From Bryobacteraceae bacterium (GTDB lineage Bacteria; Acidobacteriota; Terriglobia; Bryobacterales; Bryobacteraceae), in NCBI GenBank assembly GCA_035295805.1, contig DATGII010000157.1:158-64157 (forward strand): a DNA stretch of 64,000 nt, read 5' to 3'. The position numbers were made by a program, and so were the translations under genes. This document shows positions 36,185 through 63,175 of the stretch, in pieces. Below the pieces are notes generated by a model. That model was not told the DNA's origin and did no database searches. It saw nothing but the letters and a program-made list of their open reading frames with translations. Numbering within the stretch: position 1 is the stretch's first letter; every line of letters starts with the position of its first letter.

Positions 36185-36976
36185 CTACTTGCCGACCAGG
36201 TGTTCGACGTCGCGATTGTTTTCCTGGCAGATGTACTCGATTAACTCGCCGCGCAGCATCGTGGGATGAGTCGTGAACGTCCACGGCCTCGTGTACGCCT
36301 TTGGATCATCCACCGTGTGTTCGATGTCCATGTGGCCGAGATCGATCCGGTGGAATTTCTCGATTACGTGCAGGGCCTCGGTCGTGGGGAGGCCAGACTC
36401 ATCGATCCACGTTCTGCCGTTGAGCCCGACCGTATCCACTACGAATGTCTCGTCGTCCCAATGACCGATCGATTCGCCAAGCCAGGAAGGATTCGGATCC
36501 GCGCTGTGCGGCCGGCCGTCGGCGAAGATCTGCCGCCATACGTGGGCCCCGCCTTCGTAAACGATCACGGTGAGATTTGGAGTCTGGACAATGCGGAACG
36601 GATAGGGCGTTGTGCTCATGCGCGGTACACCAGGAGGCAGGCAGCGCGCTTCGGGATCGTCCTTGGAGATGTTCGTCTTACGTTCCTTGTACAGGGCTTC
36701 GGCCCACGGTTGAAACGGGACCTGCACGCCGCTGCCCACCATATCCACGTTCTGGCGGATGGCGTTGGGCTCCCAGTTGCCGGATAGGTCCGGTTTACCG
36801 TCGGCCGTGCGCGGCGTCGGACCGGCGGGCGGCCAGTTGGGCCGCGCCCCGCCGCGAGCCCGCGGACCGGGGCCGCCGCCGGCCGCTGGTGCGGGCGGAG
36901 CCTGGGCTTGAACAAACGGAGCAGCCAGCAGCGAAACCGCCGCGGCCATCAAGACGAACGTCAGGGATTTCATCAA
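36185..36976 (-). CDS. exported protein of an uncharacterised family (DGKPD-L-x-G-x-W ... GHWxxxT(L/F)VVD ... LHV(V/I)E(R/K)F), paralogue 1
   Basis: 263-aa ORF with signal MMKSLTFVLMAAAVSLLAAPFVQA. Shares RTADGKPDLSGNWEP, CLPPGVPR, GHWDDETFVVDTVGLN...WID, ALHVIEKFHR with the ORFs at 39663 and 40406. Confidence 0.75.
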   Translation of the reverse strand: MMKSLTFVLMAAAVSLLAAPFVQAQAPPAPAAGGGPGPRARGGARPNWPPAGPTPRTADGKPDLSGNWEPNAIRQNVDMVGSGVQVPFQPWAEALYKERKTNISKDDPEARCLPPGVPRMSTTPYPFRIVQTPNLTVIVYEGGAHVWRQIFADGRPHSADPNPSWLGESIGHWDDETFVVDTVGLNGRTWIDESGLPTTEALHVIEKFHRIDLGHMDIEHTVDDPKAYTRPWTFTTHPTMLRGELIEYICQENNRDVEHLVGK

Positions 36977-37058: not shown

Positions 37059-37070
37059 AATGCATGCATT
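37059..37070. promoter_or_regulatory. candidate operator, 12-bp palindrome AATGCATGCATT
   Basis: Read directly from the sequence. Lies 83-94 nt upstream of the 36976 start, in the divergent intergenic region. Confidence 0.55.
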
Positions 37071-37183
37071 ACCGCGAACCGTTGCTCCAGTATAGGGTTC
37101 GATTCCGCGGCTTGTCAATGTAACCAACGCCCGCTTCCCGACGCCGGAAACCACGCGGAAATGCCGGCGAATCCGGCGCTCGG

Positions 37184-37193
37184 GTGCATGCAC
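37184..37193. promoter_or_regulatory. candidate operator, 10-bp palindrome GTGCATGCAC
   Basis: Read directly. It abuts a possible TTAACA(37197-37202)-18nt-TATAAA(37221-37226) promoter of the GntR gene. Confidence 0.5.
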
Positions 37194-37250: not shown

Positions 37251-38021
37251 GTGGGCGAGAAACCGAACATTCAGAGCATGCCGCCGGGCAAAGAATCCGG
37301 ATCGTCCTCGCAAACCGCGCGCGCCACTCTGGCGCTCCGCGAAATGCTGGTGCAAGGGCGCTTCCGTCCCGGCGAGCGGATTCGCGAAGTGCCCCTGGCC
37401 GCCGAATTGAAGGTCTCCCGCATCCCGCTGCACCTGGCCTTGGAACGGCTGGCGCACGAGGGCTTTCTGCAAATCCGGCCCACCCGCGGCTTCGTGGTCC
37501 AGGGATTCTCCACCGACGACATCTTCGACGCGATTGAATTGCGCGGCCTGCTCGAGGGCGAGGCGGCCCGCCTCGCCACCGAACGATTGCGCGACCCCCG
37601 GGATCTGGAACCGCTGCAGCAAGCCAGCCGCGAAATTTTGACGCTGATCCGGCGGCGCAAACTCACCATCGACGGCTTCAACCTCTATATCGAATTGAAC
37701 GCCAGCTTTCATAGCGCTCTGCTCGATCTCTCGCGCAGCCGCATGCTGCGCCGCGCCGTCGAACAGGCCTGCTCGCTGCCGTTTGCGTCGCCCAGCGCTT
37801 TCCTGAAACGGCAGTATGTAACGCCCGAGTTGCAGGAATTGTTCCTGATTTCCGCCGACCAGCATCGCGCGATTGTCGAGGCGATCGCCAATCACGAGAG
37901 CATGCGCGCCGAGGCGCTCACCCGCGAGCACGCCCGCGTCGCCCGCCGCAACCTGGAAAACGCCCTGCAAAACCGCGAACAACTGCAAGGCATCGCGGGC
38001 GCCCGGCTCATCCACTTGTAG
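37251..38021 (+). CDS. GntR-family transcriptional regulator (FadR/FCD-type C-terminal domain)
   Basis: 256-aa ORF (GTG start, AGGTGAGG upstream). Winged-helix region LREMLVQGRFRPGERIREVPLAAELKVSRIPLHLALERLAHEGFLQIRPTRGFVV. Confidence 0.88.
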   Translation: MGEKPNIQSMPPGKESGSSSQTARATLALREMLVQGRFRPGERIREVPLAAELKVSRIPLHLALERLAHEGFLQIRPTRGFVVQGFSTDDIFDAIELRGLLEGEAARLATERLRDPRDLEPLQQASREILTLIRRRKLTIDGFNLYIELNASFHSALLDLSRSRMLRRAVEQACSLPFASPSAFLKRQYVTPELQELFLISADQHRAIVEAIANHESMRAEALTREHARVARRNLENALQNREQLQGIAGARLIHL

Positions 38022-38028
38022 CCCCGCG

Positions 38029-38040
38029 GATGCATGCATC
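38029..38040. promoter_or_regulatory. candidate operator, 12-bp palindrome GATGCATGCATC
   Basis: Read directly. Begins 8 nt after the GntR stop. Confidence 0.5.
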
Positions 38041-38104: not shown

Positions 38105-38134
38105 TTGACAGCACTCGCGGCCTCCGAATATAAT
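38105..38134 (+). promoter_or_regulatory. sigma70-type promoter of the dioxygenase operon
   Basis: TTGACA (38105-38110), an 18-nt spacer, then TATAAT (38129-38134). Lies 134 nt upstream of ATG 38268. Confidence 0.65.
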
Positions 38135-38151
38135 TCGATCCTGCGCCGGAG

Positions 38152-38161
38152 TTGCATGCAA
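38152..38161. promoter_or_regulatory. candidate operator, 10-bp palindrome TTGCATGCAA, just downstream of the -10
   Basis: Read directly. Starts 18 nt after the TATAAT, a repressor-type position. Confidence 0.55.
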
Positions 38162-38267
38162 TCTTACGTTGGGTCGCCTCCCGCCAGGGAAGGTCCGGCC
38201 CTCCCCTTCCTCCGGCCGATGCGGCAGACCCCGTTTGCGCTAAAGTTGAATTTTTAGGAGATCTCTC

Positions 38268-39239
38268 ATGGATTACCCACTCACCGGATATCACCACATC
38301 ACCGCTTGCGCCGGAGGCGCCCAGGACGATATCAATTTCTTTACGCAAGCGCTTGGCCTGCGCATGGCCAAGCAGACCGTGCTCATGGATGGCAAGATTC
38401 CGGTCTATCACTTGTATTACTCGAACGCGAAGATCGAACCTGGATCCGTCATGACCACGTTTCCTTACAGCCGCCTCCAGGGGCGGCGCGGCTCCGGCCA
38501 GGTCTATGCCACCGCGTTTACCGTTGCCAAAGGCACTCTCCCGTTCTGGAAGGATCACCTGAAGCGCCATAACATCGAACAGGAACCCGCCGCTGAACGC
38601 TTCGGACAGTCGTTTATCCGGTTCAATCATCCCTCGGGACTGCAATTCGAGGTCATCGAGGATAAAGAGGACCAGCGGGAAGGCTGGACCACGCCGCAGA
38701 TCGGGCTCGGCGAAGCGGTCCGCGGCTTCCATGGCTCGGTACTATCGGTCCGTGAGATCCCCGAAACCGAGCGATTCTTCATTGACGCCCTCGGCTTCCG
38801 CAAAACGGGGGTCGACGGCGCCTATCATCGCTTTGAGACAGGCACCGGCGGCGCCAACAAAACCATTACCCTTCTGCATCAGCCCGACCGGCCCGCCGGA
38901 AGCTGGACCTTCGGCGCCGGCACCCATCATCACATCGCGCTCTGGGGCGCCGATGACGACGCGCTCACGCGCCAGAAGGCCATCTACGAAGAACTCGGCT
39001 ACACCGACGCTTCCGAAATCAAAGACCGCTTCTATTTCCACTCGATGTACTGCCGCTGCCCGGGCGGAATCCTGGTCGAGAGCTGCTGCAATGTGCCGGG
39101 CGGCTTCGAGAAGGATGAACCGAAGGAAAAGCTCGGTACGACGCTGCACTTGCCGCCATGGTGGGCCGACCGCAAACAGGAAATGATGAAGGTGCTGGAA
39201 CCGATTCGCGTTCCCGAAACCGCGACCCACCGCAATTGA
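38268..39239 (+). CDS. ring-cleaving dioxygenase, two-domain VOC (glyoxalase/extradiol) family, MhqO-like
   Basis: 323-aa ORF preceded by TAGGAG. Starts MDYPLTGYHHITACAGGAQDDINFFTQALGLRMAKQTV. The second VOC repeat has GFHGSVLSV...HHIALW. Confidence 0.82.
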   Translation: MDYPLTGYHHITACAGGAQDDINFFTQALGLRMAKQTVLMDGKIPVYHLYYSNAKIEPGSVMTTFPYSRLQGRRGSGQVYATAFTVAKGTLPFWKDHLKRHNIEQEPAAERFGQSFIRFNHPSGLQFEVIEDKEDQREGWTTPQIGLGEAVRGFHGSVLSVREIPETERFFIDALGFRKTGVDGAYHRFETGTGGANKTITLLHQPDRPAGSWTFGAGTHHHIALWGADDDALTRQKAIYEELGYTDASEIKDRFYFHSMYCRCPGGILVESCCNVPGGFEKDEPKEKLGTTLHLPPWWADRKQEMMKVLEPIRVPETATHRN

Positions 39240-39252
39240 TTCGCGCATCGTC

Positions 39253-39666
39253 ATGAAGAACCGCTTGATGATTTTGATTTGCGGCGGCGCGCTGGCTCTG
39301 ATTCCCGGCACAGTTTCGGCGCACCACTCCTTCGCTGCCGAGTACGACGCCAATAAGCCCGTCACGTTGAAAGGCAGGGTGACCAAGGTGGATTGGGTCA
39401 ACCCCCACTCTTGGGTTCACGTCGACGTTACCGACGCCAACGGCAAGGTGACCAACTGGAGTTGCGAGACGGCGCCTCCCAACATCCTCTATCGCCAGGG
39501 CTGGAGACCGAACAGCCTCAAAGAAGGCGACGAGGTCACAATCGAAGGTTTCGCGGCAAAGGATGCCACCGCCACCATGACCGCCAACTCGGTCACCTTG
39601 GCGAATGGCCGCAGGATGTTCGTGGGCTCCAACAAAGACGGCGCGCCCTCCGAGTCGAAGAAATGA
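39253..39666 (+). CDS. DUF6152-like small exported protein
   Basis: 137-aa ORF: MKNRLMILICGGALALIPGTVSA/HHSFAAEYDANKPVTLKGRVTKVDWVNPHSWVHVDV... Confidence 0.75.
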   Translation: MKNRLMILICGGALALIPGTVSAHHSFAAEYDANKPVTLKGRVTKVDWVNPHSWVHVDVTDANGKVTNWSCETAPPNILYRQGWRPNSLKEGDEVTIEGFAAKDATATMTANSVTLANGRRMFVGSNKDGAPSESKK

Positions 39667-40409
39667 GTGCGGCTCGCGCGCTCATCGCCTGCGCCGCGCT
39701 GATCGCTTCGCTATCGGGCCAAACGAGAGCCTATCGCGCTCCCCGTACACCCGACGGGAAGCCCGATTTACAGGGCATCTGGGAGGCGCGCTCCACCGCC
39801 GGCGGCAATCTCGAAGCGCACAGCGCCGCGCTCGGGATACGCGCCGGAGAGAGCGTGATCGTCGACCCTGCGGATGGCAGGATCCCGTATCAACCCGCGG
39901 CGCGCGAAAAGCAGAAAGAGAATTTTCTGAACCGGGCGGCAGCCGACCCCATCGCCAAGTGTTATCTGCCGGGCGTGCCGCGCGTCACCTACATGCCCTA
40001 CCCGTTCCAGATTTTTCAGACGCCGGAATTTGTCGCCCTCACCTACGAGTATGTCCATGCGTCGCGCACCATCCACATGAACAAATCCGAACACCTGGAC
40101 GGCATCGAATTCTGGATGGGCGATTCCCGCGGGCATTGGGAAGGTGAGACCTTGGTGGTGGACGTGGCCGATAACAACGGCGACACTTGGCTGGACTCCT
40201 CGGGCAACTTTCACAGCTCGGCTCTGCACGTCGTCGAACGCTACACCCGGACTGGGCCGGATACTTTACAATACGAAGCGGCCCTTGAGGATCCCAAGGT
40301 GCTCACCCGCCCGTTCACCATCAGCATTCCGTTGTACCGACACACCGGCAAAAACGCGCAATTGTACGAATACGAATGTCACGTCTATCAGGAGGAAAGC
40401 AGGAAATGA
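39663..40409 (+). CDS. exported protein of the same uncharacterised family, paralogue 2
   Basis: The start is set at MSAARALIACAALIASLSG (ATGA overlap with the DUF6152 stop); the track ORF starts at 39393. Contains RTPDGKPDLQGIWEA, CYLPGVPR, GHWEGETLVVDVADNN...WLD, ALHVVERYTR. Confidence 0.75.
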   Translation: MSAARALIACAALIASLSGQTRAYRAPRTPDGKPDLQGIWEARSTAGGNLEAHSAALGIRAGESVIVDPADGRIPYQPAAREKQKENFLNRAAADPIAKCYLPGVPRVTYMPYPFQIFQTPEFVALTYEYVHASRTIHMNKSEHLDGIEFWMGDSRGHWEGETLVVDVADNNGDTWLDSSGNFHSSALHVVERYTRTGPDTLQYEAALEDPKVLTRPFTISIPLYRHTGKNAQLYEYECHVYQEESRK

Positions 40410-41215
40410 TGCGGACGGCGGCGCTCGCGCTGGCCGTGCTGCTGCCGGTAGCGCTCCTGGCGCAAGGCCGCGGCCCGGGGCGCGCCCCCGGAAAGGCCGG
40501 CCCGTTCACGCGTCTGCCCGATGGCAAGCCAAACATGCAGGGCTACTGGGAGACGCTCAATTTCTTCTCGGCTTTCGACCTGGAAGGCCACGACAAAGCC
40601 GAGTTCGGCATTCCCGCCGGCAAGGGCGTTGTCGTCGATCCTGCCGATGGAAAAATCCCCTACCAGCCCTGGGCGCTGGCAAAGCGGAAGGACGTTCTCG
40701 AACACCACTTGTTCGATGACCCGCAGGCGCACTGTTGGCTTTCGGGCGTGCCGCGCCAGATGTACACCCCGTTCGGGTTCCAGATCCTCCAGCCGCCCGG
40801 CAATGTCGTCCTGCTCTACGAGGCGTTTCATTCCTACCGCATCATTCCTCTGAACGGCGCGCCGCACGCTTCCGATGCCATCCGCATGTTCGAAGGCGAT
40901 TCGCGCGGCCACTGGGAAGGCGACACGCTCGTCGTCGACGTCACCAACCAGAACGAGAAGACCTGGTTCGACATGTCGGGCAACTTTCATAGCGACGCGC
41001 TTCACGTAGTCGAGCGGTTTACGATGGCCGACGCGAACACCATCCGTTACCAGGCCACCCTCGACGATCCCAAAGTCTTTGCGCGGCCCTGGAAAATCGC
41101 CTTCGACCTGGGCCGCAACACCCAGCCCGACTACCAGCAGATGGAGTACGCCTGTGTCGAAGGCGAAAAAGACCTGCAGCATTACACCGAAAGCGAGGGG
41201 GCCAGGAAAAAGTAA
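40406..41215 (+). CDS. exported protein of the same uncharacterised family, paralogue 3
   Basis: The start is set at MMRTAALALAVLLPVALLAQG (ATGA overlap with the previous stop). Contains RLPDGKPNMQGYWET, CWLSGVPR, GHWEGDTLVVDVTNQN...WFD, ALHVVERFTM. Confidence 0.75.
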   Translation: MMRTAALALAVLLPVALLAQGRGPGRAPGKAGPFTRLPDGKPNMQGYWETLNFFSAFDLEGHDKAEFGIPAGKGVVVDPADGKIPYQPWALAKRKDVLEHHLFDDPQAHCWLSGVPRQMYTPFGFQILQPPGNVVLLYEAFHSYRIIPLNGAPHASDAIRMFEGDSRGHWEGDTLVVDVTNQNEKTWFDMSGNFHSDALHVVERFTMADANTIRYQATLDDPKVFARPWKIAFDLGRNTQPDYQQMEYACVEGEKDLQHYTESEGARKK

Positions 41216-41231
41216 GCGGCCCGCCGGACAC

Positions 41232-42392
41232 ATGAAAACCAGCACGGAACGCATCCTCACCACTCACGTCGGCAGTCTGCCGCGTCCTCAGGAAGTCGCG
41301 GATTTGTTGTTCATGCAGGACCGCGGCGACCCATACGACCCCGCCCGCTTCGATGCCGTCATGCGGCGCGGCGTCGCCGAAGCCATTCGCCGGCAGCAGC
41401 AAGCCGGCATCGATATCGTCAGCGACGGCGAAACCAGCAAGATCAGCTACGCCACCTACATTCGCCATCGCCTCACCGGCTTTGAAGGCGATTCGCCGCG
41501 GCCCACGCCGCAGGATATCGACGAGCTGCCCGACTACCGCGACAAGCTCGTCAAAGAGGGCGCATCGGCGAAATATTTGCGGCCGGCCTGCAAAGGACCC
41601 ATCCAGGTGAAGAACCGCGAGCCGCTCGAACAGGATATCGCCCGCATGAAGGACGCCCTGGCCCAGGCGCAGGTGACCGAAGGCTTCATGAACGCCGTGT
41701 CGCCCGGCACCATCGCGGTCTTCCAGCCTAACGAATATTACCCCTCTCATGCCGCATACATGGAAGCGCTCGCCGGGGCCATGCGCGACGAATACGAGAC
41801 CATCGTGCAATCGGGCCTGCTGCTGCAGGTAGACTGTCCCGATCTGGCCATGGGACGCCACAGCCGCTTCCGCAATCTCAGCGACGAAGAATTCCTGCGC
41901 GCCGCCGAAATCCAGGTCGAGGCGCTCAATCACGCCTTGGCCCGCGTGCCCGCCGATCGCGTGCGCCTCCATATCTGTTGGGGCAATTACGAAGGCCCGC
42001 ATACGCACGATATTCCCCTCGAAAAGGTGCTGCCGCTGCTGTTCAAAGCCAAGCCGATGGCTCTGCTGATCGAAGGCGCCAACCCCCGCCATGAGCATGA
42101 GTGGGAGATTTGGAAGACGCACAAGCTTCCCGCTGATAAAATTCTCGTGCCCGGCGTGCTCGACTCCAGCTGCAATTTTGTCGAACACCCGCAGCTGGTG
42201 GCGCAGCGTCTGGTGCGCTATGCCGAGGGTGTCGGCCGCGAGCGTGTGATCGCCGGCACCGATTGCGGCTTCGGCACCTTCGCCGGCTTCGGTCCGGTCC
42301 ATCCGTCCATCTGCTGGCTCAAAATGCGGTCGCTGGCCGAAGGCGCGGCGCTGGCGTCGAAGAAGCTGTGGGGCGCGCGGTCTTCGGCATGA
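41232..42392 (+). CDS. cobalamin-independent methionine synthase (MetE C-terminal domain)-like protein 1
   Basis: The start is set at MKTSTERILTTHVGSLPRPQEV. Also has IDIVSDGE, HICWGN and TDCGF (candidate Zn ligands). 386 aa. Confidence 0.82.
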   Translation: MKTSTERILTTHVGSLPRPQEVADLLFMQDRGDPYDPARFDAVMRRGVAEAIRRQQQAGIDIVSDGETSKISYATYIRHRLTGFEGDSPRPTPQDIDELPDYRDKLVKEGASAKYLRPACKGPIQVKNREPLEQDIARMKDALAQAQVTEGFMNAVSPGTIAVFQPNEYYPSHAAYMEALAGAMRDEYETIVQSGLLLQVDCPDLAMGRHSRFRNLSDEEFLRAAEIQVEALNHALARVPADRVRLHICWGNYEGPHTHDIPLEKVLPLLFKAKPMALLIEGANPRHEHEWEIWKTHKLPADKILVPGVLDSSCNFVEHPQLVAQRLVRYAEGVGRERVIAGTDCGFGTFAGFGPVHPSICWLKMRSLAEGAALASKKLWGARSSA

Positions 42393-43540
42393 AGCGAAGC
42401 GAGCACCGGATTCTCACCACCCACGTCGGCAGCCTCATCCGGCCCGGGGAACTGCGCGATCTCTCCGCGGCCGCGGAAAAGGATCCCGCCCAGGCGGCGC
42501 ACTATGAGTCGGCGCTGCGCCAGGCCGTCGCCGAGGTCGTCCAACACCAGGCGCGCGTCGGTATCGATATCGTCAGTGACGGCGAGTACGGCAAAGCCAG
42601 CTGGTCCAACTACATCCTGAAACGCATCAGCGGATTTGAGATTCGCCCCGAGCAGAAGCGCACGCTCCCCTGGCTTGGCCGCGACCGCGAGCGATTCCGC
42701 GACGCCATCGCGCAGGATATGCCCCGCCTGCTGACCGGCGTCCCCACCGAAGCCTGTACCGGTCCTGTCTCCTACCGCGACCCCGCGCCCATCCGGCGTG
42801 CCATCGAAAATTTCCAGGCCGCTCTGCGGCAGGTCTCGGTGGAAGAGGCATTTCTCACCGCCGTCGCTCCCGGCAGCACCGCCTACGACGGCGTCAACGA
42901 GTATTACTCGAGCGAAAAAGAGTACGTCTACGCAATTGCCGACGCGCTGCGCGAGGAATACCGCGCCATCCACCAATCCGGCGTGCTGCTGCAGGTGGAT
43001 GATGCCGTGCTCGCCAACATGTACGACGAGCTCGTGCAGGCCAGCCCCCAGCGCTATCGGGAATGGGCGAACCTGCGGGTCGAAGCCCTGAACCACGCCT
43101 TGACCGGCATCCCCGACGACCGCATTCGCTACCATGTCTGCTTCGGCAGTTGGCATGTGCCGCATGTCGCCGACGCTCCGCTCGATCAGATTGTCGATCT
43201 GATTCTCAAAGTCCGCGCCGGCGCCTACTCCATCGAAGCCGCCAACGTGCGCCACGAGCACGAGTGGCGGGTCTGGGAAAATGCCCGCCTGCCCAAAGCA
43301 AAGCTGCTCATCCCCGGTGTCATTACTCACCACACCGCCACCGTGGAGCATCCGCAAGCCGTGGCCGATCGCATTGTCCGCTTCGCCCGCCTCGTGGGCC
43401 GCGAGAATGTTATCGCGGGCTCCGATTGCGGTTTTGCGCAAGCCGACATGATCCAGCGCGTTCATCCTACCGTCATGTGGGCCAAGTTCGAGGCGCTCGT
43501 CGAAGGCGCGCGAATCGCCTCGAAAACGCTCTGGTCGTGA
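42389..43540 (+). CDS. cobalamin-independent methionine synthase (MetE C-terminal domain)-like protein 2
   Basis: The start is set at MKRSEHRILTTHVGSLIRPGEL (ATGA overlap with the previous stop). Also has IDIVSDGE, HVCFGSW, SDCGF. 383 aa. Confidence 0.82.
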   Translation: MKRSEHRILTTHVGSLIRPGELRDLSAAAEKDPAQAAHYESALRQAVAEVVQHQARVGIDIVSDGEYGKASWSNYILKRISGFEIRPEQKRTLPWLGRDRERFRDAIAQDMPRLLTGVPTEACTGPVSYRDPAPIRRAIENFQAALRQVSVEEAFLTAVAPGSTAYDGVNEYYSSEKEYVYAIADALREEYRAIHQSGVLLQVDDAVLANMYDELVQASPQRYREWANLRVEALNHALTGIPDDRIRYHVCFGSWHVPHVADAPLDQIVDLILKVRAGAYSIEAANVRHEHEWRVWENARLPKAKLLIPGVITHHTATVEHPQAVADRIVRFARLVGRENVIAGSDCGFAQADMIQRVHPTVMWAKFEALVEGARIASKTLWS

Positions 43541-43593
43541 AAGAGTTGATGCCCCCGCTGATACCTGCTATCGATTCGGTTGATACTGCGTTC

Positions 43594-43601
43594 TGCATGC
43601 A
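43594..43601. promoter_or_regulatory. candidate operator core TGCATGCA upstream of the TonB-dependent receptor promoter
   Basis: Read directly (ttcTGCATGCAatc). Confidence 0.45.
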
Positions 43602-43657
43602 ATCCACTGATGCCGGCGCATGGTTGTGAATTGTCGAAGGTGCGACCAATATTACCG

Positions 43658-43687
43658 TTGACATAGATTTCGCCCACGTCATATAAT
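43658..43687 (+). promoter_or_regulatory. sigma70-type promoter of the TonB-dependent receptor gene
   Basis: TTGACA (43658-43663), an 18-nt spacer, then TATAAT (43682-43687). Lies 112 nt upstream of ATG 43799. Confidence 0.65.
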
Positions 43688-43703
43688 CCAGCAAAACTGG
43701 TGG

Positions 43704-43715
43704 AATGCACGCATT
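43704..43715. promoter_or_regulatory. one-mismatch copy of the operator (AATGCACGCATT) downstream of the -10
   Basis: Read directly. Starts 17 nt after the TATAAT, the same geometry as at 38152. Confidence 0.4.
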
Positions 43716-43798
43716 TTGACTCGGGGTCCCTTCCGGCATTTGGGCCGTGTGTACCTGCGCGCCCGGAGTCTCTCAGTAGCCCTAGAGGAGGACCATTC

Positions 43799-46700
43799 AT
43801 GAAAACTTTTGCTTTGCGCTGCGCGACGGCAGCCATTGCCTTATCTTTGGCGAGCATCGCTTTCGGCCAGATCACCGCCTCGGTCGGCGGCACCGTATCT
43901 GACCCCTCCGGCGCTCTGGTACCGAAAGTCAATGTCAGCGCCCGTAATATCAATACCGGCATCGTGTCCAACACGGTAACCAATGAAACGGGAGCCTATC
44001 AGTTTCCGAGCCTGCAGCCCGGCTCTTACACGATCTCGGCCACAGCCGCCGGTTTCCAGACGGCCACTTACAATGACGTGCAGCTCGGGCAGAACCAGCA
44101 AGTGCGCCTGAACTTCAGCATGCAACTGGCCACCGGCGCGCAGTCTGTCGAAGTCGAGGTCCAGGCCGACACCGCCATCGCCACCACATCCTCCTCGGTC
44201 GGCGGTGTGATCGCTGAGAAAGACGTGCTCTCGCAGCCGCTCGCGAGCCGCAACGTGCTCGATCTGGTCGCCCTCACGCCCGGCGTAATTTCGGTGCCCG
44301 GCGTGTTCGTCGGCAGCACGCTGAATTTTGCCGGCGTGCAGCAAAATCAGGTGAACACCACGCGCGATGGTTTGATCACCAACGACGGCCGCTACGCCAA
44401 CGGCGCCTACTCCGGCATTTTCACGAGTCCCGACATGGTCGAAGAAGTTCGCGTCAGCACCAACCAGATCGATCCTTCGCTCGGCCGCGGTGCCGCGCAG
44501 GTGCAAATGCGGACCCGCTCCGGCAGCAACGAATTTCACGGCGCGGCTTTCTGGACCAATAACAACTCCGTCTTCAACGCGGCCACCTACTTTCAGAACC
44601 TCCAGCACCAGCCGGTGGATTATGCCAATCGTAACCAGTTCGGCGGCCGCGTCGGAGGTCCGATTAAAAAGAATAAGGCCTTCTTCTTCGTCTTAACGGA
44701 TGATCAGCGTTACATGACGAAGGTGAATGACGTCGCCACGGTTCTCACCGCGCCGGCCCGCCAGGGCATCTTTCGTTATCTGACCGCCGGTTCGCCGGGC
44801 GGCGCCGCGCGAACCAATGGCAACGCCTTTTCGAGCACCCCCTCGGTTGATCTGAACGGAAATATCCTCACCTCGGCCGGCGGCCAGCCGTTATACCTGA
44901 ATTCGGTCAACCTGCTTGCTGCCGGAGGTCCCAATTTCAGCTCGATCGATCCGCTCTGGTTCGGGCCTCAGTACACGAACAAGTACATGCCGCTGCCCAA
45001 CAACTACACCGTCGGCGACGGCCTGAACACGGCTGGTTTCCAATGGCAGCAGCCGGAGAACGGAGTGGACGGTTCCACGGGCCAAAGCCCCAGCACCAAT
45101 CGCAACAACATCACGCTCCGCTTCGACTATCAGATCAACGCCGCTCAGAGTGTCAATTTCGTGATGAGCAAGGAACGGGATTGGGGCGTCAATACCCAGA
45201 CCGGTATCCCCGATTACCCGGCCGGTTATTTCGGCGATGTGCGGCGGACCCCGTCCTTTTATAGCGCGGCCTGGACGTGGACTATCAGGCCGACCTTGTT
45301 GAATGAATTCCGTTTCGGCCATAAAGTCGATACCTGGCAAGGCACTTCCGCCATGGATCTGGGGTGCTGCTGGAATGGCGCGGCGGAGAACAGCGGACTG
45401 GCGGCGACCGCCCAGGCGGCCCGCGCCTCCTATCCGCAGTTGAATGGCTCGTTCCTCTACACAGCACCCGGTTCGCTCGGCGCCATCGGCGGGAGCCTGG
45501 GGCTGTACGCCGGTATGAATGTCGCATCCCCCCGTCAGACGATCAGCCCCTTCTGGCAGTTTGGCGACTCGCTCAGCTGGATCCACGGATCCCATTCGCT
45601 TCAGTTCGGATTCGAAATCGACCGGACGTCCTCGCAATCGGCTAATAGCGGCGGCACCCAGACTACGCGGCCCACCGTGAACCTCGGCATACCCGCCGGT
45701 GGAGTGGCGCCGCCGATCACCACGGCTACCTTCCCCGGCATCGGCGCGCTCAACCTCACCACGGCTCAGAATTTGCTGGCTAACCTCGCCGGCGAGGTGG
45801 CCAACGTGCAGGAACAATATTGGGTCAACAGCCCGACCGCGACCAACTGGAATTCCTACCTGAACGATTTTCTGTTCTACCGAACCAATCATCAGAATGC
45901 CTGGTCCGGGTACGTCAAGGATACGTGGAAGGTCAACCCCAATCTGACCGTCAATGCCGGCCTGCGCTACGACTTTTTCGGCGCGCCTTATCAGGATCAG
46001 GGCTTGGCCGGTCGGCCTCTCGGCGGCCAGGCCGGATTGTTCGGAATCTCCGGAACCAGCTTCGCGGCAATGTGGAACCCGTACGCCAATGGCGGCGCGT
46101 TGACCACGGCTCAGTTTGTCGGCCCGAATTCGCCCAACCCCGGCCTTGGTGTATACAACAATTACTGGAAGGCCCTCGGTCCTTCGATTGGAGTCGCCTA
46201 CCAGTTGCCGTGGTTCAAGCGCGCCACGGTCATCCGTGCGGGTTACGGCATCAATTACATCGGCAACGTGGACTTCCTCACGGTGAATACGGGCATCGGT
46301 AACTTCCCGGGCCAGACGCTGAATACTCAATTCAATCCGTCGACCTTCGTGAACCTGTCGAGCCTCCTCTCTTCGGGCAATGTGCCGGTGCCGACGGGCA
46401 CCACGCAGCCCTTCACCCCAGTGCCGCTTACAGGCCCGACCAGCCGCACGGCCACCATCTACGGTTACGCGGACAATCTGCGGACGCCGTACATTCAAAG
46501 CTACAACTTCTCGATCCAACGGGAATTGACTTCAACTCTGACGGTCGACTTCAATTTCATCGGCAACAAAGGTTCCGAACTCTACACGAATCAGCAGCTG
46601 AACGAGACCAACATCTTTGAAAACGGGATCCTGAATGCCTTCAACACCACCCGGGCCGGAGGCAATGCCCCGCTGTTTGATACGTTGCTGAACGGAATCA

Positions 46701-47836
46701 CGATTCCCGGCGTCGGCACCGTGAACGGCACGTCGTTAACCGGCTCGCAGGCGCTCCGGCAATACTCGGTCACCAATACGATGATCGCGAATGGCTCCGT
46801 TGGCGCCCTGGCCAACTTCTTTAATACGACGTCAACCGGAACGGGAGCCAACGGCGGACTGCTTTCCCACGCCGGGCTGCCGCAGAACTTCATTGTCGTG
46901 AACCCCCAATTCGCCCAGGTGTTCATGATCGATAACAACGGAAATTCCACCTACAACGCATTCCAGGCCCACATCATGAAACGCCTGACTCACGGTGTGA
47001 CCGGCCAGTTCTCGTATACGTTTTCCAAAACGCTCGGCGACACGCCGGCCGGCGGCGGCACCTCCGGCGGCATCCGCGACTGGCGGAATATGAGTCTGAG
47101 CAAGAGTCTGTTGCCGATTGATCGTCCCCAGCTGTTCCAGTGGAACATCACGTGGGATCTGCCCATCGGCAGCAAACGGGCGCTGTTGGGTAATGCTCCC
47201 AAGTGGATGAACACGGTTGTGGGCGGCTGGCAGGTCGCTTCCGCATTCCAATGGCAATCCGGCGTACCGCTCACGTTCTTCCCGGGAAGCGGGACTTCCC
47301 TCAACAACGTCGATACGATCGGCTACTTCGCCAGCAACACGGCGGATCTGGTCGGTCAACTGCCCTCCAACCTTTCGACCGTTGTGAAAGGAAATGGCTT
47401 CGTCCAATACTTCCCCGGCCTGTCGGCAGTGAATGCGCCGGCCCCAAACTTCGGCGGCGATCCCAATCTGCCGGGACGGTTCACCAATTTGCAGGTAGTC
47501 AACGCATCGGGTCAGCCGGTGCTGGCTAACCCGAATCCTGGAACAACCGGGAATACCCCGTACTACATGCCGGGAGTGCGCAGCCCCGGATTGATGGGCT
47601 TTAATGCGTCCGCCAGTAAGCTCTTCCGGCTCACCGAGTCGAAGACCATCACGTTGCGGGCCGACGCCATCAACATTTTGAATACTCCTCAATTCGGCTA
47701 TTACCTGAGCGCTCCGCCGATTGGCCAGCCGCCTCTCGTCGCGATTCAGACTAATATCGATTCGCCGTCATTCGGCCGCATCACGTCGGCAACCGGCAAC
47801 CGCATGATCACGTTCTACGCTCGTTTCGATTTCTAG
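43799..47836 (+). CDS. TonB-dependent receptor with carboxypeptidase-regulatory-like N-terminal domain
   Basis: The start is set at MKTFALRCATAAIALSLASIAFGQ (GAGGAGG upstream); the track ORF starts at 43700. N-terminal domain ITASVGGTVSDPSGALVPKVNVSARNINTG...TGAYQFPSLQPGSYTISATAAGF. The long beta-barrel ends ...YARFDF (terminal Phe). Confidence 0.88.
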   Translation: MKTFALRCATAAIALSLASIAFGQITASVGGTVSDPSGALVPKVNVSARNINTGIVSNTVTNETGAYQFPSLQPGSYTISATAAGFQTATYNDVQLGQNQQVRLNFSMQLATGAQSVEVEVQADTAIATTSSSVGGVIAEKDVLSQPLASRNVLDLVALTPGVISVPGVFVGSTLNFAGVQQNQVNTTRDGLITNDGRYANGAYSGIFTSPDMVEEVRVSTNQIDPSLGRGAAQVQMRTRSGSNEFHGAAFWTNNNSVFNAATYFQNLQHQPVDYANRNQFGGRVGGPIKKNKAFFFVLTDDQRYMTKVNDVATVLTAPARQGIFRYLTAGSPGGAARTNGNAFSSTPSVDLNGNILTSAGGQPLYLNSVNLLAAGGPNFSSIDPLWFGPQYTNKYMPLPNNYTVGDGLNTAGFQWQQPENGVDGSTGQSPSTNRNNITLRFDYQINAAQSVNFVMSKERDWGVNTQTGIPDYPAGYFGDVRRTPSFYSAAWTWTIRPTLLNEFRFGHKVDTWQGTSAMDLGCCWNGAAENSGLAATAQAARASYPQLNGSFLYTAPGSLGAIGGSLGLYAGMNVASPRQTISPFWQFGDSLSWIHGSHSLQFGFEIDRTSSQSANSGGTQTTRPTVNLGIPAGGVAPPITTATFPGIGALNLTTAQNLLANLAGEVANVQEQYWVNSPTATNWNSYLNDFLFYRTNHQNAWSGYVKDTWKVNPNLTVNAGLRYDFFGAPYQDQGLAGRPLGGQAGLFGISGTSFAAMWNPYANGGALTTAQFVGPNSPNPGLGVYNNYWKALGPSIGVAYQLPWFKRATVIRAGYGINYIGNVDFLTVNTGIGNFPGQTLNTQFNPSTFVNLSSLLSSGNVPVPTGTTQPFTPVPLTGPTSRTATIYGYADNLRTPYIQSYNFSIQRELTSTLTVDFNFIGNKGSELYTNQQLNETNIFENGILNAFNTTRAGGNAPLFDTLLNGITIPGVGTVNGTSLTGSQALRQYSVTNTMIANGSVGALANFFNTTSTGTGANGGLLSHAGLPQNFIVVNPQFAQVFMIDNNGNSTYNAFQAHIMKRLTHGVTGQFSYTFSKTLGDTPAGGGTSGGIRDWRNMSLSKSLLPIDRPQLFQWNITWDLPIGSKRALLGNAPKWMNTVVGGWQVASAFQWQSGVPLTFFPGSGTSLNNVDTIGYFASNTADLVGQLPSNLSTVVKGNGFVQYFPGLSAVNAPAPNFGGDPNLPGRFTNLQVVNASGQPVLANPNPGTTGNTPYYMPGVRSPGLMGFNASASKLFRLTESKTITLRADAINILNTPQFGYYLSAPPIGQPPLVAIQTNIDSPSFGRITSATGNRMITFYARFDF

Positions 47837-47870: not shown

Positions 47871-48866
47871 TCACGCCGCCGGCTGGTGGTTGCCGAAGAC
47901 CTTTGCTTCTGAGGAATCAGCGGCGCGGGTGCCGGACGCAGCCGACGCCGCAAGCCGCTGGCGCATTCCGCGCTGCTCGCAGAACAAATCGGCGATCACG
48001 CTTCGCAGCCAGCGCACCGCCGGATCGTGCGTGTATCGCTCGTGCCAGTGCTGCATGATCACGTAAGAAGGCACCGCAAACGGCAAGCGCAGCACTTTAA
48101 TGGTTCCCGGCCCCGCCAGGTGTTGCGCCAATTGTCCCGGCAGGACTGCCAGGTAATCGGTGGATGCGAGAATCGAGGAGATGCCCAAAAAGCTCGGCAC
48201 CGACAACCCAACGTGGCGGCGGATGCCCTTGGCTTCGAGAATTCGCTCCACGATGCCATGTCCGGTGCCGGAGGTGGCGACCGCGAGGTGAGTCTCGCCT
48301 TGAAATTGTTCGAGGCTCAGGGCGGCTCCGACGCGCGGGTGATCCCGCCGCGCAGCGCAGACGAATTTTTCCTTGAACAGGCTTTGCTGGCAATAACCGG
48401 CGCCCATCGGCGGAATGAACCCGACCGCAAGATCCACTGCTCCCGATTCCAGCAGGCGGGGCGTGGTCTCCGAGATGCGCCGCAAGTCGATCCGCACCGC
48501 CGGGGCATCCTCTTTCAACCGCGCCATGAGTTTCGGAATCAGCGTGACTTGCGCGATGTCGGTGGAACACAGCCGGAAGACGCGGTCCGAGGTTCGCGGG
48601 TTGAACACGACGTGATGCCCCAGCGCGGTTTGTAATAACTCTTCGGCTTGCTTGAGGAGATCGATAAGCTCGGAGGCATGCGGCGTCGGCTCCATGCCGC
48701 TGGAGGTACGGACAAACAGTGGATCGTTGAAATGCTTGCGGAGCTTCGCCAGATTCATGCTGACTGCGGACTGGCTTAGCGACAAATTCTCCGCGGTTTG
48801 CGACACGCTGCGCGTGTGGTGCAGTTCGCTGACGACGGCCAGAAGCTTCAGGTCTATGTTTTTCAC
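47871..48866 (-). CDS. LysR-family transcriptional regulator
   Basis: The start is set at GTG 48866 (VKNIDLKLLAVVSELHHTRSVSQTAENLSLSQSAVSMNLAKLRKHF). The track ATG at 48926 lies inside a TGCATGCA site. Confidence 0.85.
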   Translation of the reverse strand: MKNIDLKLLAVVSELHHTRSVSQTAENLSLSQSAVSMNLAKLRKHFNDPLFVRTSSGMEPTPHASELIDLLKQAEELLQTALGHHVVFNPRTSDRVFRLCSTDIAQVTLIPKLMARLKEDAPAVRIDLRRISETTPRLLESGAVDLAVGFIPPMGAGYCQQSLFKEKFVCAARRDHPRVGAALSLEQFQGETHLAVATSGTGHGIVERILEAKGIRRHVGLSVPSFLGISSILASTDYLAVLPGQLAQHLAGPGTIKVLRLPFAVPSYVIMQHWHERYTHDPAVRWLRSVIADLFCEQRGMRQRLAASAASGTRAADSSEAKVFGNHQPAA

Positions 48867-48921
48867 GCGCGCCCGCAACCCCCCGCAGCAGGAAGCTGTT
48901 AGAGCAAGCATATCACAAAAT

Positions 48922-48929
48922 TGCATGCA
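48922..48929. promoter_or_regulatory. candidate operator core TGCATGCA upstream of the LysR gene
   Basis: Read directly (aatTGCATGCAtta). Confidence 0.45.
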
Positions 48930-48963
48930 TTATAGGCGGCTTCGGGGCACCCGTGACGAAGAA

Positions 48964-48991
48964 CCGGGAGAAATGCATGCATTTCTCCCGG
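48964..48991. promoter_or_regulatory. 28-bp perfect palindrome centred on TGCATGCA (operator and/or terminator hairpin of the upstream hydrolase gene)
   Basis: ccgggagaaatgcatgcatttctcccgg is its own reverse complement. It lies 31 nt downstream of the stop at 49022 and 98 nt upstream of the LysR start. Confidence 0.6.
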
Positions 48992-49021: not shown

Positions 49022-49885
49022 CTAGGCCAGCGCCTTGCCGTACAGCGCGAGCAGACGGCTCCAGGCCCTCTCTGCCTCGGGCTCGTTATAAACCCCGGAA
49101 TCCGGAGGGCACCAGCCGTGCGCGCCCTTGTACACTTCGATTTCGGCGGGCAGGTTCGCCTTGGCGAAGGTCTCCCTCAGAATGTCCTTCTCGTCCGGCT
49201 TCTGCGCGTCGTCGTTGGCGGCAATGCAAATTAAAAACTGCGCCTTGCTCTTGGCCGCCTGCAGGTGCGGGCTATTGGGCATGTCCGTCGCAAGCCCGTT
49301 GCCGCCGTGGAAAGAGGCGACGGCTCCGACGCGGTCCGGCACGGCGGCGGCGGTGCGAAACGCCATCGGGCCGCCCATGCAATACCCCTGCGTGCCGATC
49401 TTGCGATTCTTGGCAACCGAGGGTTGCTGATCGAGCCACGCGATGAACGCCTTCGCATCCGTCATGTGCGTCTTTTCATTGAGGCTTTGGGCTAGCGGCA
49501 TCAATTGCGGGATCGGGGTGGCGGCGCCTTTTTCGGCGGTCGGCGCTTTCTTAGTGCGATAAAACGGATTCACCACGAGCACCGAATAGCCCGATTCGGC
49601 GAGCCGCTTGCCCATCTGGCGCTGCGCCGGACGCAACCCGAAGATGTCGGGCCACAGCAGAACGCCGGGCGCCGTGCCGCTCGATGGATGCACGAAATAG
49701 CAGTCGGCGGTGCCATCCGGGGTTTTCACTTCCACGTCCGATTCGGTAACGGATACGGCATTGGCAACGGCCGGCAGCATCATAGCCACCCCGGCGCCCA
49801 GTATTTTCCCGAATTGCTTTCGCGTTACCAGACCGAGGCGTTCAAATTCTTTCAGATCCTCGTCAAAATGATCTTGATCGCACAT
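49022..49885 (-). CDS. dienelactone hydrolase family protein, probably exported
   Basis: 287-aa ORF. TRKQFGKILGAGVAMMLPAVANA resembles a signal or Tat-like leader. GVLLWPDIFGL, GTQGYCMGG (nucleophile elbow) and the C-terminal GAHGW are typical of DLH. Confidence 0.82.
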   Translation of the reverse strand: MCDQDHFDEDLKEFERLGLVTRKQFGKILGAGVAMMLPAVANAVSVTESDVEVKTPDGTADCYFVHPSSGTAPGVLLWPDIFGLRPAQRQMGKRLAESGYSVLVVNPFYRTKKAPTAEKGAATPIPQLMPLAQSLNEKTHMTDAKAFIAWLDQQPSVAKNRKIGTQGYCMGGPMAFRTAAAVPDRVGAVASFHGGNGLATDMPNSPHLQAAKSKAQFLICIAANDDAQKPDEKDILRETFAKANLPAEIEVYKGAHGWCPPDSGVYNEPEAERAWSRLLALYGKALA

Positions 49886-49985: not shown

Positions 49986-50939
49986 TCAGGGCTTGCAACG
50001 GGCGGCGGCGGCGGCCGGATCGCCGGGGCGGAAGCCGCGCTTATCGCGATACACCTGGTGGCAGTGCGCGCAGGCATCGGACAGCCGAGAGGTGAAATCG
50101 CTCATGGCTTCCTGATTCCGCGACTGGGCAATGCGGTAGGCTTCTCGTCCGGTTTCGACCAGTTCCTGCGTGTATTTGATCCAATCGGCGCGCTCGACGG
50201 GGACCGGCAGACCGTTCTGGCAGCGGCGCCCCGGAGTCAGCAGGAGAGGCGCCGAGTCGGCAATTGCAATCGCGGCGTAGTCCACGATCTGCCAGCCGCT
50301 ATAAAGACCGGCGCCCCAGGTGGTCCAGGAGAAATCCGCGTTGGCCCCGGCCGGGCCGGCCTTGGGAGGCGCACCGGGATCATTGGTCTGAACGTTGAAA
50401 ATGATGTTCGAGTTCGGAAACAGAATGGAACGCATCAACTGATTCAAATTGCCCAGGGGCGGAAAGGCGGGACCCGGCGAGGCGGCTGTGGTCGTGGACT
50501 GCGGCTTGGCCGCGGTGAGCACGAGGGACTTCAGAGCGGCCTCTTCGGCAGGGAGTTCGTTGGAGCCTGAAGGAAACTTGCCGGCCTGCAGGATGTACGC
50601 GACAAGGTCGGCCGTATCGGCGGGCTTCAATTTGCCCGGATCGTCGGCCGGCATGGTATTGCGGATCTTACCCGCCAATTCCGAGAGCGGTTGCGCTCCC
50701 CAGGCGCCGAGGAACGCGGAGCCGGCCAGCGGCGGCGCAGCCTTACCTTCGAGGGCATCGCCGTGGCACGGGGCGCACTTCTGTTGATAGAGGGCGCGGC
50801 CGCGCGCAGCCTGGGCATCAGTATAAATGCGATCGTCGGCTGTTCGGGCCGGCTGGGCCGATGACACGGGAGCGAGCAGTTGGAACAGCAGACCCGCGGC
50901 AATAACAGAGCGGAGCGCGAACGACAAATGGGCTCTCAT
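49986..50939 (-). CDS. exported c-type cytochrome with a second C-terminal haem motif
   Basis: 317-aa ORF with signal MRAHLSFALRSVIAAGLLFQLLAPVSSA. CAPCHGD sits near the N-terminus and CAHCHQVY near the C-terminus. Confidence 0.75.
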   Translation of the reverse strand: MRAHLSFALRSVIAAGLLFQLLAPVSSAQPARTADDRIYTDAQAARGRALYQQKCAPCHGDALEGKAAPPLAGSAFLGAWGAQPLSELAGKIRNTMPADDPGKLKPADTADLVAYILQAGKFPSGSNELPAEEAALKSLVLTAAKPQSTTTAASPGPAFPPLGNLNQLMRSILFPNSNIIFNVQTNDPGAPPKAGPAGANADFSWTTWGAGLYSGWQIVDYAAIAIADSAPLLLTPGRRCQNGLPVPVERADWIKYTQELVETGREAYRIAQSRNQEAMSDFTSRLSDACAHCHQVYRDKRGFRPGDPAAAAARCKP

Positions 50940-63101: not shown

Positions 63102-63175
63102 TGGCTGGGAGGCAGGGATTCGAACCCCGATACGCAGATCCAGAGTCTGCAGTCTTACCGTTAGACGACCTCCCA
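63102..63175 (-). tRNA. tRNA-Gln (anticodon CTG)
   Basis: The minus strand reads TGGGAGG-TC-GTCT-AACGGTA-AGAC-T-GCAGA-CTCTGGA-TCTGC-GTAT-CGGGG-TTCGAAT-CCCTG-CCTCCCA-G-CCA. That is 74 nt, all four stems pair, and the 7-nt anticodon loop carries CTG. Confidence 0.9.

Follow-up and report, generated by a model that had tools for sequence, protein, structure and literature searches.

A conserved regulon of a Bryobacteraceae bacterium joins a TonB-dependent receptor, a predicted PcpA-type dioxygenase and MetE-like proteins to a widespread triad of exported proteins

The dedicated uptake of a lignin-derived aromatic compound is known in the case of DdvT, a TonB-dependent receptor (PMC6874591). The catabolism of a methoxylated hydroquinone has been described for the VhyA-MhdA-OmeA pathway of Aspergillus niger, in which methoxyhydroquinone is made by a flavin adenine dinucleotide (FAD)-dependent hydroxylase, and the opening of its ring gives a methyl ester that is removed by an esterase (PMC8336404). 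Here we analyse a locus of a Bryobacteraceae bacterium (Acidobacteriota), contained in a stretch of 64,000 nucleotides (nt; below, the window) of a 64,163-bp contig of a metagenome-assembled genome. An earlier note, made from the letters alone, had described at this site six head-to-tail genes (for a ring-cleaving dioxygenase, three exported proteins and two MetE-like proteins) followed by a gene for a TonB-dependent receptor, and had proposed a self-contained uptake-plus-conversion module. We consider it fairly probable, though by no means certain, that the locus is an inducible regulon through which a substituted p-hydroquinone of lignin or humus origin, probably a methoxylated one, is taken up and catabolised.

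The layout given in the earlier note is correct. The coordinates of all seven plus-strand genes (Table 1) are confirmed by the open reading frame map, by the translations and by the NCBI calls (HLK49274-81), which agree with the map in products and lengths. As had been read, start and stop codons overlap as ATGA at positions 39663, 40406 and 42389, and the remaining junctions of the six-gene operon are gaps of 13 and 16 nt. The receptor gene does lie directly downstream behind its own consensus promoter, and Pfam recognizes in its 1345-amino-acid (aa) product the Plug (9e-06; 26.6 bits against a cut-off of 23.9), OMP_b-brl_4 (4e-124) and CarboxypepD_reg (8e-22) domains. A GntR gene and a third exported paralogue, here called ParC, are indeed situated immediately upstream. 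The earlier note had overlooked a LysR gene, an operator palindrome and a third promoter. Operator palindromes bracket three consensus promoters and recur at the genes for GntR and LysR. The locus thus extends further than first reported: ParC, GntR, the six-gene operon, the receptor and LysR form one regulon.

The two TTGACA-18-TATAAT promoters claimed previously are perfect at every position, and the third, in front of the ParC gene, differs at one. With at most one mismatch allowed, only these three sites occur in the whole window, all within the locus, against 0.11 expected. The 8-nt palindrome TGCATGCA is present in seven exact copies (1.55 expected; a number reached in none of 100 shuffles), each of which falls in non-coding DNA of this locus. 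The geometry is the same at all three promoters, i.e. one site approximately 65-75 nt upstream of the -35 box and another approximately 18-20 nt downstream of the -10 box. At the receptor promoter the downstream site is the degenerate ATGCACGCAT, with which a perfect ATGCATGCAT is aligned in the related locus L004. In alignments with L004 and L005, the -35 boxes, the -10 boxes and the palindromes stand out as invariant islands in diverged flanking DNA. The palindrome also recurs at corresponding intergenic positions, within diverged surroundings, in L001, L004, L005, L007, L166, L167 and L109, and its density reaches 2.3 per 10 kb in loci with orthologues of both regulators, compared with 0.07 in 153 loci without them. 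This conservation is a phylogenetic footprint of a repressor-type operator, and the arrangement of the sites suggests a road-block mechanism, possibly with looping.

Two further sequence features accompany the operators. In front of the receptor gene a conserved box, GTGAATTGT (around 43630-43640), separates the upstream operator from the -35 box of the promoter; it is common to L005 and, in part, to L004, and may be the site of a second regulator, e.g. the LysR protein. A perfect 28-nt palindrome, CCGGGAGAAATGCATGCATTTCTCCCGG (around 48961-48988), separates the 3' end of a dienelactone-hydrolase gene from the LysR gene and could terminate transcription in both directions, extend the operator, or do both.

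Two candidate sensors are encoded in the locus. The GntR protein contains both an N-terminal winged helix-turn-helix domain and a C-terminal FCD domain, each matching at 3.6e-14, and its orthologues were detected in L001, L004, L005, L007, L109, L166 and L167; those of the LysR protein were found in L001, L004, L005 and L007. Since TGCATGCA sites occur in loci in which only the GntR orthologue was detected (L109, L166 and L167), the distribution mildly favours the GntR/FCD protein over LysR as the palindrome-binding regulator, although such sites are also present on a short contig with LysR only (L094). The called ATG of the LysR gene (48924-48926) sits within the operator 48922-48929, as does that of L004 (18634-18636); the true start may be a GTG near 48866, about 60 nt downstream (MKNIDLKLL...).

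The distribution of the genes was followed in two surveys. The first comprised 80 loci from GTDB species genomes and concerned the triad of exported proteins, i.e. the DUF6152 protein and two paralogues (ParA and ParB) of a family referred to here as DGKPD. In the second, metagenome contigs were scanned with the second MetE-like gene (MetE2, at 42389), and gene contexts were counted over the 49 loci that span 4 kb or more. The full arrangement of the window is repeated in L004, L005 (in both of which the receptor orthologue is 78% identical) and L166. Single operons of shuffled order are found in L167, where GntR, FAD monooxygenase, dioxygenase, DUF6152, MetE-like, ParA and ParB genes follow one another in one direction, and in L086 (dioxygenase, ParB, MetE2, MetE1, GntR). 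ParC adjoins the GntR gene or the receptor gene in L001, L005, L007, L109 and L166. Synteny, single operons of shuffled order and a conserved operator common to the promoters uphold the view that these genes form a functional unit. That genes for exported and for cytoplasmic proteins are intermixed in several distinct orders is good evidence that they share a function in the Bryobacteraceae lineage. It could be argued that functionally unlinked genes have been juxtaposed by chance, for which speaks only that no known pathway exists; synteny in at least five independent relatives, the gene overlaps, the common operator and the promoters refute this, and we regard its probability as negligible. 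Coincidence falls far short of explaining the feature, which is real.

Outside the lineage the picture is different. The neighbourhood analysis recommended in the earlier note gave co-occurrence in Bryobacteraceae relatives, but not across other phyla, where the triad is unlinked to the dioxygenase. The triad is the constant feature of the 80 genome loci, in varying gene order and often in several sets: at least two DGKPD domains are encoded in 77, and a DUF6152 gene lies within 1.5 kb in 63. Its hosts include Bryobacterales, Vicinamibacterales, Holophagales and other Acidobacteriota, several lineages of Gammaproteobacteria, Rhodospirillaceae and Burkholderiaceae, and a two-gene unit of DUF6152 and a ParC-like protein recurs as well. 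Only in close relatives of the window (L001-L007) does the triad come with the genes for the dioxygenase, the MetE-like proteins, GntR and LysR; about 75 other loci encode the exported triad but not the enzymes. Elsewhere its commonest neighbours are pyrroloquinoline quinone (PQQ) alcohol-dehydrogenase propellers with an N-terminal cytochrome c domain (15 loci; often directly adjacent and encoded on the same strand), TonB receptors (12 loci), membrane proteins of the DUF6644 type and other c-type haem proteins.

The enzyme genes, in turn, occur without the triad. Relatives of MetE2 (56-81% identical) lie directly downstream of a PcpA-like dioxygenase gene, on the same strand, in 8 of the 48 loci with enough flank. 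The order receptor, dioxygenase, MetE2 is seen in L091, L095 and L105, from which the exported genes are absent; in the first two of these an extra MetE-like gene precedes the dioxygenase and an MBL hydrolase gene follows MetE2. A gene for a DesA/LigM aryl O-demethylase (PDB 5tl4, E=2.6e-154; above the NCBIfam cut-off for LigM and just under that for DesA) adjoins the MetE2 subfamily in 9 of the 49 loci, as does one for an AAHS-like major facilitator superfamily (MFS) transporter in 8; a TonB receptor of one sort or another is encoded beside it in 16. Therefore the single self-contained unit of the earlier note is better described as a composite of two separable modules that also occur independently of each other, one comprising the enzymes and the outer-membrane receptor and the other the periplasmic triad.

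Two of the related loci contain additional genes of other kinds. A polysaccharide deacetylase gene follows ParB in L167, while in L004 (12810-17437) such a gene splits the MetE-like pair, after which an AprA-like methyltransferase gene and a third MetE-like gene are located.

The dioxygenase of the locus consists of two vicinal oxygen chelate (VOC) modules, recognized as Pfam Glyoxalase, has no signal peptide, and matches both PcpA, a 2,6-dichloro-p-hydroquinone 1,2-dioxygenase (PDB 4huz; E=5e-73 over residues 5-311 of 323), and, at full length, MhqO (PDB 3oaj; E=2e-52). The metal-ligand motifs HHIT, HHxA and E are aligned between the query and PcpA (YHHIT/LHHIT, THHHIAL/IIHHGAF and ILVES/VMFEA, respectively); the 2-His-1-carboxylate Fe(II) ligands of PcpA are His11, His227 and Glu276. 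By family membership, the product is predicted to be a PcpA/LinE/MhqO-type hydroquinone ring-cleaving dioxygenase. The relative L167 encodes, in addition, a group-A flavoprotein hydroxylase related to 6-hydroxynicotinate 3-monooxygenase, salicylate hydroxylase and the proteins of PDB entries 8gsm (deposited as a 4-hydroxybenzoate decarboxylase) and 8x38 (a decarboxylative vanillate 1-hydroxylase), and group-A hydroxylases of this kind make hydroquinones. An aromatic, methyl-bearing substrate, as suggested in the earlier note, fits the dioxygenase type as well as the occurrence of DesA/LigM, AAHS-type MFS and group-A flavin hydroxylase genes next to MetE2 orthologues.

The likeness to MhqO raises the question of whether the locus serves quinone or hydroquinone stress defence, as a regulon resembling Mhq of Bacillus subtilis, in which the dioxygenase would destroy toxic hydroquinones, the MetE-like proteins, as thiol-alkylating enzymes, would carry out repair or conjugation, and the exported proteins, whose modelled calycin-like barrels (see below) could bind quinones, would sequester quinones in the periplasm. 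Such a role would also agree with the genes examined, which include neither an inner-membrane importer nor a lower-pathway gene. An energy-consuming TonB receptor placed under the same operator points instead to deliberate import, and the homologous loci hold genes for catabolism and uptake (DesA/LigM, an MFS importer, the FAD hydroxylase and a CE15 esterase), so we regard a defence function as unlikely.

The two MetE-like proteins, MetE1 (386 aa) and MetE2 (383 aa), are 44% identical to each other and match Pfam Meth_synt_2 with 43.7 and 65.3 bits (cut-off 21). Both display the zinc motif HxC...E...C (HICW/HVCF, IEGA/IEAA, DCGF) as well as the motifs GS(L/F)PR and DGE. These features, and the annotation of the source record as methionine synthase, might be taken to indicate ordinary cobalamin-independent methionine synthases, with methionine or sulfur metabolism merely placed beside an aromatic gene. 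Several observations speak against this. The N-terminal Meth_synt_1 domain of the two-barrel MetE (about 750 aa) was not detected in either protein, and their best NCBIfam scores (83 and 107 bits, against 406 for PRK04326) are far below the equivalog cut-offs of 258-930. Moreover, two paralogues are placed under a GntR/LysR operator, the locus gave no match to an S-adenosylmethionine (SAM) or B12 riboswitch or to any other Rfam family with the E limit relaxed to 1, and genes for the dioxygenase, for DesA/LigM and for TonB-dependent receptors are repeatedly found next to the subfamily. Ordinary methionine synthesis is in our opinion very improbable. On sequence criteria MetE1 and MetE2 are members of the superfamily, not demonstrably methionine synthases. 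Literature searches linking MetE-like enzymes or methionine synthases to aromatics, to a TonB-dependent receptor together with a dioxygenase, to LigM or to lignin O-demethylation returned nothing relevant.

The profile searches (Pfam, NCBIfam) advised in the earlier note thus identified the Glyoxalase, DUF6152, Meth_synt_2 and receptor domains, while ParA and ParB remained without a match; its remark that no characterised pathway of this composition is known also holds, since a literature search gave no published characterisation and no paper on DUF6152 was found. All four exported proteins (DUF6152, ParA, ParB and ParC) carry signal peptides. In the DUF6152 protein the predicted end of the signal peptide, A|HH, is present in 49 of 49 homologues from related loci (...A|HH(S/A)F.AE(F/Y)D), in all of which an NPH motif is invariant as well. 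With cleavage as predicted, the mature protein would begin with His-His, and this invariant N-terminus suggests a metal or ligand site. The AlphaFold2 model of the mature protein (pLDDT 85) has an oligonucleotide/oligosaccharide-binding (OB) fold, with SSB, PriB and the anticodon-binding domain of LysRS as the nearest structures. A second DUF6152 homologue is encoded at positions 40-300 of the window (minus strand; 36% identical to the product of gene 39253 over 89 residues), and within the window no member of the DGKPD family was detected next to it.

ParA and ParB are about 50% identical (49% in alignment, 52% by tblastn). ParC shares 36-39% with them by tblastn and 43% with ParA in alignment. 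None of the three has a match in Pfam, NCBIfam or PDB sequence searches, and PDB profile searches with two alignments gave no relative (best E=0.5). The DGKPD family is nevertheless very large, comprising 19,702 clusters (50% identity) at E<=1e-3 and 10,991 at E<=1e-10 in a profile search, and more than 8,000 word-sharing matches to it are all labelled 'hypothetical'. The AlphaFold2 model of ParA (pLDDT 83) consists of one strand, a helical segment and eight antiparallel strands, and Foldseek relates it weakly (E about 1e-3, target TM about 0.5) to the calycins FABP4, CRABP2 and streptavidin; a profile search revealed no relation to calycins at the sequence level. Natural tandem fusions of 400-530 aa exist, in which a ParA-like N-terminal half is joined to a ParB-like C-terminal half in the same order as the genes here, and for this reason ParA and ParB probably form a heterodimer. 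Fusions between DUF6152 and DGKPD proteins were not found, and of ten long DGKPD-family members none carries a Pfam domain from which a function could be deduced. Among diverse representatives the conserved polar residues of the family are mostly Asp, Glu and Arg, together with a Cys pair; a conserved multi-His metal site was considered and rejected, as H132 and H158 vary.

These properties bear on the proposal that the triad, perhaps with the receptor, is a periplasmic metal-acquisition or metallochaperone module whose clients would be the Fe dioxygenase, the Zn MetE-like proteins and the Ca- or lanthanide-dependent PQQ dehydrogenases. The predicted His-His terminus and the NPH motif of DUF6152 are compatible with such a function, an OB-fold recalls CusF and calycin-like barrels recall ZinT, all enzymes of the operon are metalloenzymes, and the triad is often found beside PQQ dehydrogenases and TonB-dependent receptors. 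GntR/FCD and LysR regulators, however, sense small molecules and are not of the Fur, Zur or CsoR types; the histidines of the DGKPD proteins vary across the wider family, no metal transporter is present nearby, and in Bryobacteraceae the genes of the triad are intermixed with catabolic ones, in an order that differs between loci. We therefore consider a metal module improbable.

The regulon proposed here for hydroquinone uptake and catabolism would operate as follows. The TonB-dependent receptor would bring the compound across the outer membrane; in the periplasm the ParA-ParB heterodimer, the solitary ParC and DUF6152 would bind, pass on or pre-process it, and an inner-membrane transporter encoded elsewhere would move it to the cytoplasm. 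There, the PcpA-type Fe(II) dioxygenase would open the hydroquinone ring, and the MetE-like Zn enzymes would move methoxyl-derived methyl groups onto homocysteine or a similar thiol. The methyl donor could be 5-methyl-tetrahydrofolate (5-methyl-THF) from a demethylase of the DesA/LigM type, encoded next to the subfamily elsewhere, or the methyl-ester or enol-ether ring-fission products of a cleavage next to the methoxyl carbon. Transcription would be controlled by a repressor, most likely the FCD-type GntR protein, acting on the TGCATGCA palindromes at the three sigma-70 promoters, while the LysR protein would probably be a ligand-dependent activator, as are PcpR and LinR. Candidate substrates are methoxy- or 2,6-dimethoxy-hydroquinone, the corresponding quinone, or a phenolic compound from which one of these is formed. 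Import through the receptor and ring cleavage are proposed from family membership and context, whereas we infer what the substrate is, how the triad and the MetE-like proteins act, which regulator binds the operator and that there is an inner-membrane step.

Several points weigh against this scheme. Contrary to the 'self-contained' module of the earlier note, the genes examined include neither an inner-membrane transporter nor a downstream pathway gene (maleylacetate reductase or similar), and neither a DesA/LigM gene nor an aromatic MFS transporter gene was found in the 64-kb window. In L001 the MetE-like genes are absent, and so appear dispensable in this one relative, and ParB is followed by a CE15 glucuronoyl esterase gene. 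Across other phyla the triad adjoins PQQ-cytochrome c dehydrogenases and haem proteins rather than the dioxygenase, and its role may be generic (redox, metal) and not specific to this substrate. The structural matches, with Foldseek E about 1e-3 and TM about 0.5-0.6, are weak, the His-His segment at the N-terminus of DUF6152 is modelled at pLDDT below 50, and we know of no experiment on any member of these families.

A bolder and rather doubtful proposal combines two claims, namely that the triad is a hitherto unrecognised, very widespread periplasmic machine operating just behind TonB receptors and that the MetE-like proteins are a new class of methyltransferase. The machine would consist of a metal-bearing OB subunit (His1-His2) docked on the heterodimeric calycin-like pair, and would capture or oxidatively process phenolics or quinones, in other phyla alongside the PQQ-cytochrome dehydrogenases. 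The methyltransferases would transfer the methyl group of an aryl ether, of a ring-fission methyl ester or of 5-methyl-THF made by DesA/LigM to homocysteine, so that methyl groups from lignin methoxyl would pass straight into methionine.

Table 1. Genes, promoters and operator sites of the locus (window coordinates)
Position	Strand	Feature	Evidence or remark
36185-36976	-	ParC, third exported DGKPD paralogue	signal peptide
37061-37068		operator TGCATGCA, extended form AATGCATGCATT	~20 nt downstream of ParC -10 box
37089-37118	-	ParC promoter TTGACA-18-TATACT	11/12 positions
37185-37192		operator TGCATGCA	upstream of GntR gene; orthologous sites in L004 (7543) and L005 (7564)
37251-38021	+	GntR-family regulator, FCD subfamily	Pfam GntR and FCD
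38031-38038		operator palindrome	~70 nt upstream of operon -35 box; invariant in alignment with L004 and L005
38105-38134	+	operon promoter TTGACA-18-TATAAT	12/12 positions; both hexamers invariant in L004 and L005
38153-38160		operator palindrome	18 nt downstream of operon -10 box (road-block position)
38268-39239	+	predicted PcpA/LinE/MhqO-type hydroquinone ring-cleaving Fe(II) dioxygenase	PDB 4huz and 3oaj, full-length; Glyoxalase
39253-39666	+	DUF6152 (PF19649), exported protein with predicted OB-fold	Pfam 2e-32, 111.4 bits against a gathering threshold of 27
39663-40409	+	ParA, exported; family without a Pfam model	predicted calycin/FABP-like beta-barrel
40406-41215	+	ParB, paralogue of ParA	identity and natural fusions
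41232-42392	+	MetE1, MetE-C-terminal-like Zn enzyme 1, cytoplasmic, single domain	Meth_synt_2
42389-43540	+	MetE2, MetE-C-terminal-like Zn enzyme 2	Meth_synt_2; orthologues adjoin dioxygenase, DesA/LigM
43594-43601		operator palindrome	upstream of receptor promoter; kept in L004 and L005
43658-43687	+	receptor promoter TTGACA-18-TATAAT	12/12 positions
43705-43714		degenerate operator ATGCACGCAT, one mismatch	18 nt downstream of receptor -10 box
43799-47836	+	acidobacterial-type TonB-dependent receptor, 1345 aa	CarboxypepD_reg, Plug, barrel
47871-48926	-	LysR-family regulator	Pfam HTH_1 and LysR_substrate
48922-48929		operator palindrome	at LysR promoter, inside conserved box ATATCACAAAATTGCATGCA
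48974-48981		operator core	inside 28-nt perfect palindrome upstream of LysR gene

Beyond the LysR gene lie two minus-strand genes, for a dienelactone-hydrolase-family protein with an N-terminal export-like segment (49022-49885) and a c-type cytochrome (49986-50939). They are not syntenic in L004 and L005, and were left out of the locus as probably unrelated. On the other side the locus is bordered by a gene for an ankyrin-repeat protein of about 575 aa with an apparent signal peptide (34422-36149, plus strand), a neighbour kept in three relatives (L001, 1-185; L004, 20037-20756; L005, 17772-19751). Elsewhere in the window, two minus-strand genes (8470-11106 and 18766-21462) encode exported proteins of about 880-900 aa, apparent paralogues with near-alike N-termini (…QQ.TS(S)TA..KRWSD…). 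A tRNA gene (63105-63175, minus strand) is the sole Rfam match of the window.

Acidobacteria, whose pathways for aromatic carbon are almost unknown, dominate many acidic soils rich in lignin and humus. The locus offers a testable regulon with defined promoters and a defined operator, two candidate sensors and a likely class of substrate, and the genomic tie of a MetE-like subfamily to hydroquinone cleavage and aryl O-demethylation represents a new enzyme context. The assignment of a function would annotate tens of thousands of genes, and might reveal a new periplasmic handling step after TonB-dependent uptake, or a route for lignin methoxyl groups into one-carbon and methionine metabolism.

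Among the systems described so far, the pcp/lin genes of Sphingobium share with this locus the dioxygenase family (PcpA/LinE) and a LysR-type regulator (PcpR/LinR in that genus), and the FAD phenol/benzoate hydroxylase encoded upstream in the relative L167 echoes the PcpB-PcpA logic. The window lacks equivalents of PcpB, PcpC and PcpE (LinD, LinF). Found here in addition are a TonB receptor, MetE-like enzymes, a repressor system of the GntR type and four exported proteins of uncharacterised families; chlorinated compounds are unlikely to be its natural substrates. With the fungal VhyA-MhdA-OmeA pathway it would have in common the sequence of FAD hydroxylase, methoxy-hydroquinone, 1,2-dioxygenase and methyl ester, but MhdA is annotated as a homogentisate 1,2-dioxygenase, not a VOC/PcpA protein, and the esterase frees the methyl group as methanol (PMC8336404). 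MetE-like enzymes, an outer-membrane step and periplasmic proteins have no place in the fungal route.

Sphingobium sp. SYK-6 likewise possesses a dedicated receptor (DdvT), and THF-dependent aryl O-demethylases, which it uses too, neighbour the MetE-like subfamily in loci homologous to that described here. It recycles 5-methyl-THF by MetF, LigH and FolD, not by a MetE-like enzyme. SYK-6 is not known to carry the DUF6152/DGKPD triad at its locus, and it opens the ring of protocatechuate or gallate, not of hydroquinone. The superfamily of the MetE C-terminal domain includes MetE, the single-domain 'core' MetE and the epoxyalkane:coenzyme M transferase. MetE1 and MetE2 share with these the Meth_synt_2 domain, a (beta-alpha)8 barrel, and the thiolate-activating zinc motif HxC...E...C, but are devoid of the N-terminal folate-tail domain and differ in genomic context and regulation.

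CusF, ZinT and the histidine-brace proteins (such as CopC, PmoB and the lytic polysaccharide monooxygenases) are periplasmic metal binders with an N-terminal His. DUF6152 is also a small exported beta-barrel protein with a predicted His-His N-terminus, and the modelled fold of its partners may be calycin-like, as is that of ZinT; there is no sequence or profile similarity, and the DUF6152 model is an OB-fold rather than an immunoglobulin-like or cupredoxin-like sandwich. SusC/SusD loci, too, comprise a TonB receptor with an N-terminal carboxypeptidase-regulatory-like domain, co-regulated with processing genes. Here, no SusD-like lipoprotein gene stands beside the receptor gene, the neighbours of which are the MetE2 and LysR genes, and the processing enzymes are of aromatic catabolism instead of glycoside hydrolases. 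The locus is therefore of a known kind, a TonB-receptor-linked aromatic catabolic cluster with a PcpA-type dioxygenase and GntR/LysR control, whose new parts are the DUF6152/DGKPD triad (no DGKPD model or structure and no paper on DUF6152 was found), the MetE-like subfamily with its linkage to hydroquinone cleavage and aryl O-demethylation, and the TGCATGCA operator system.

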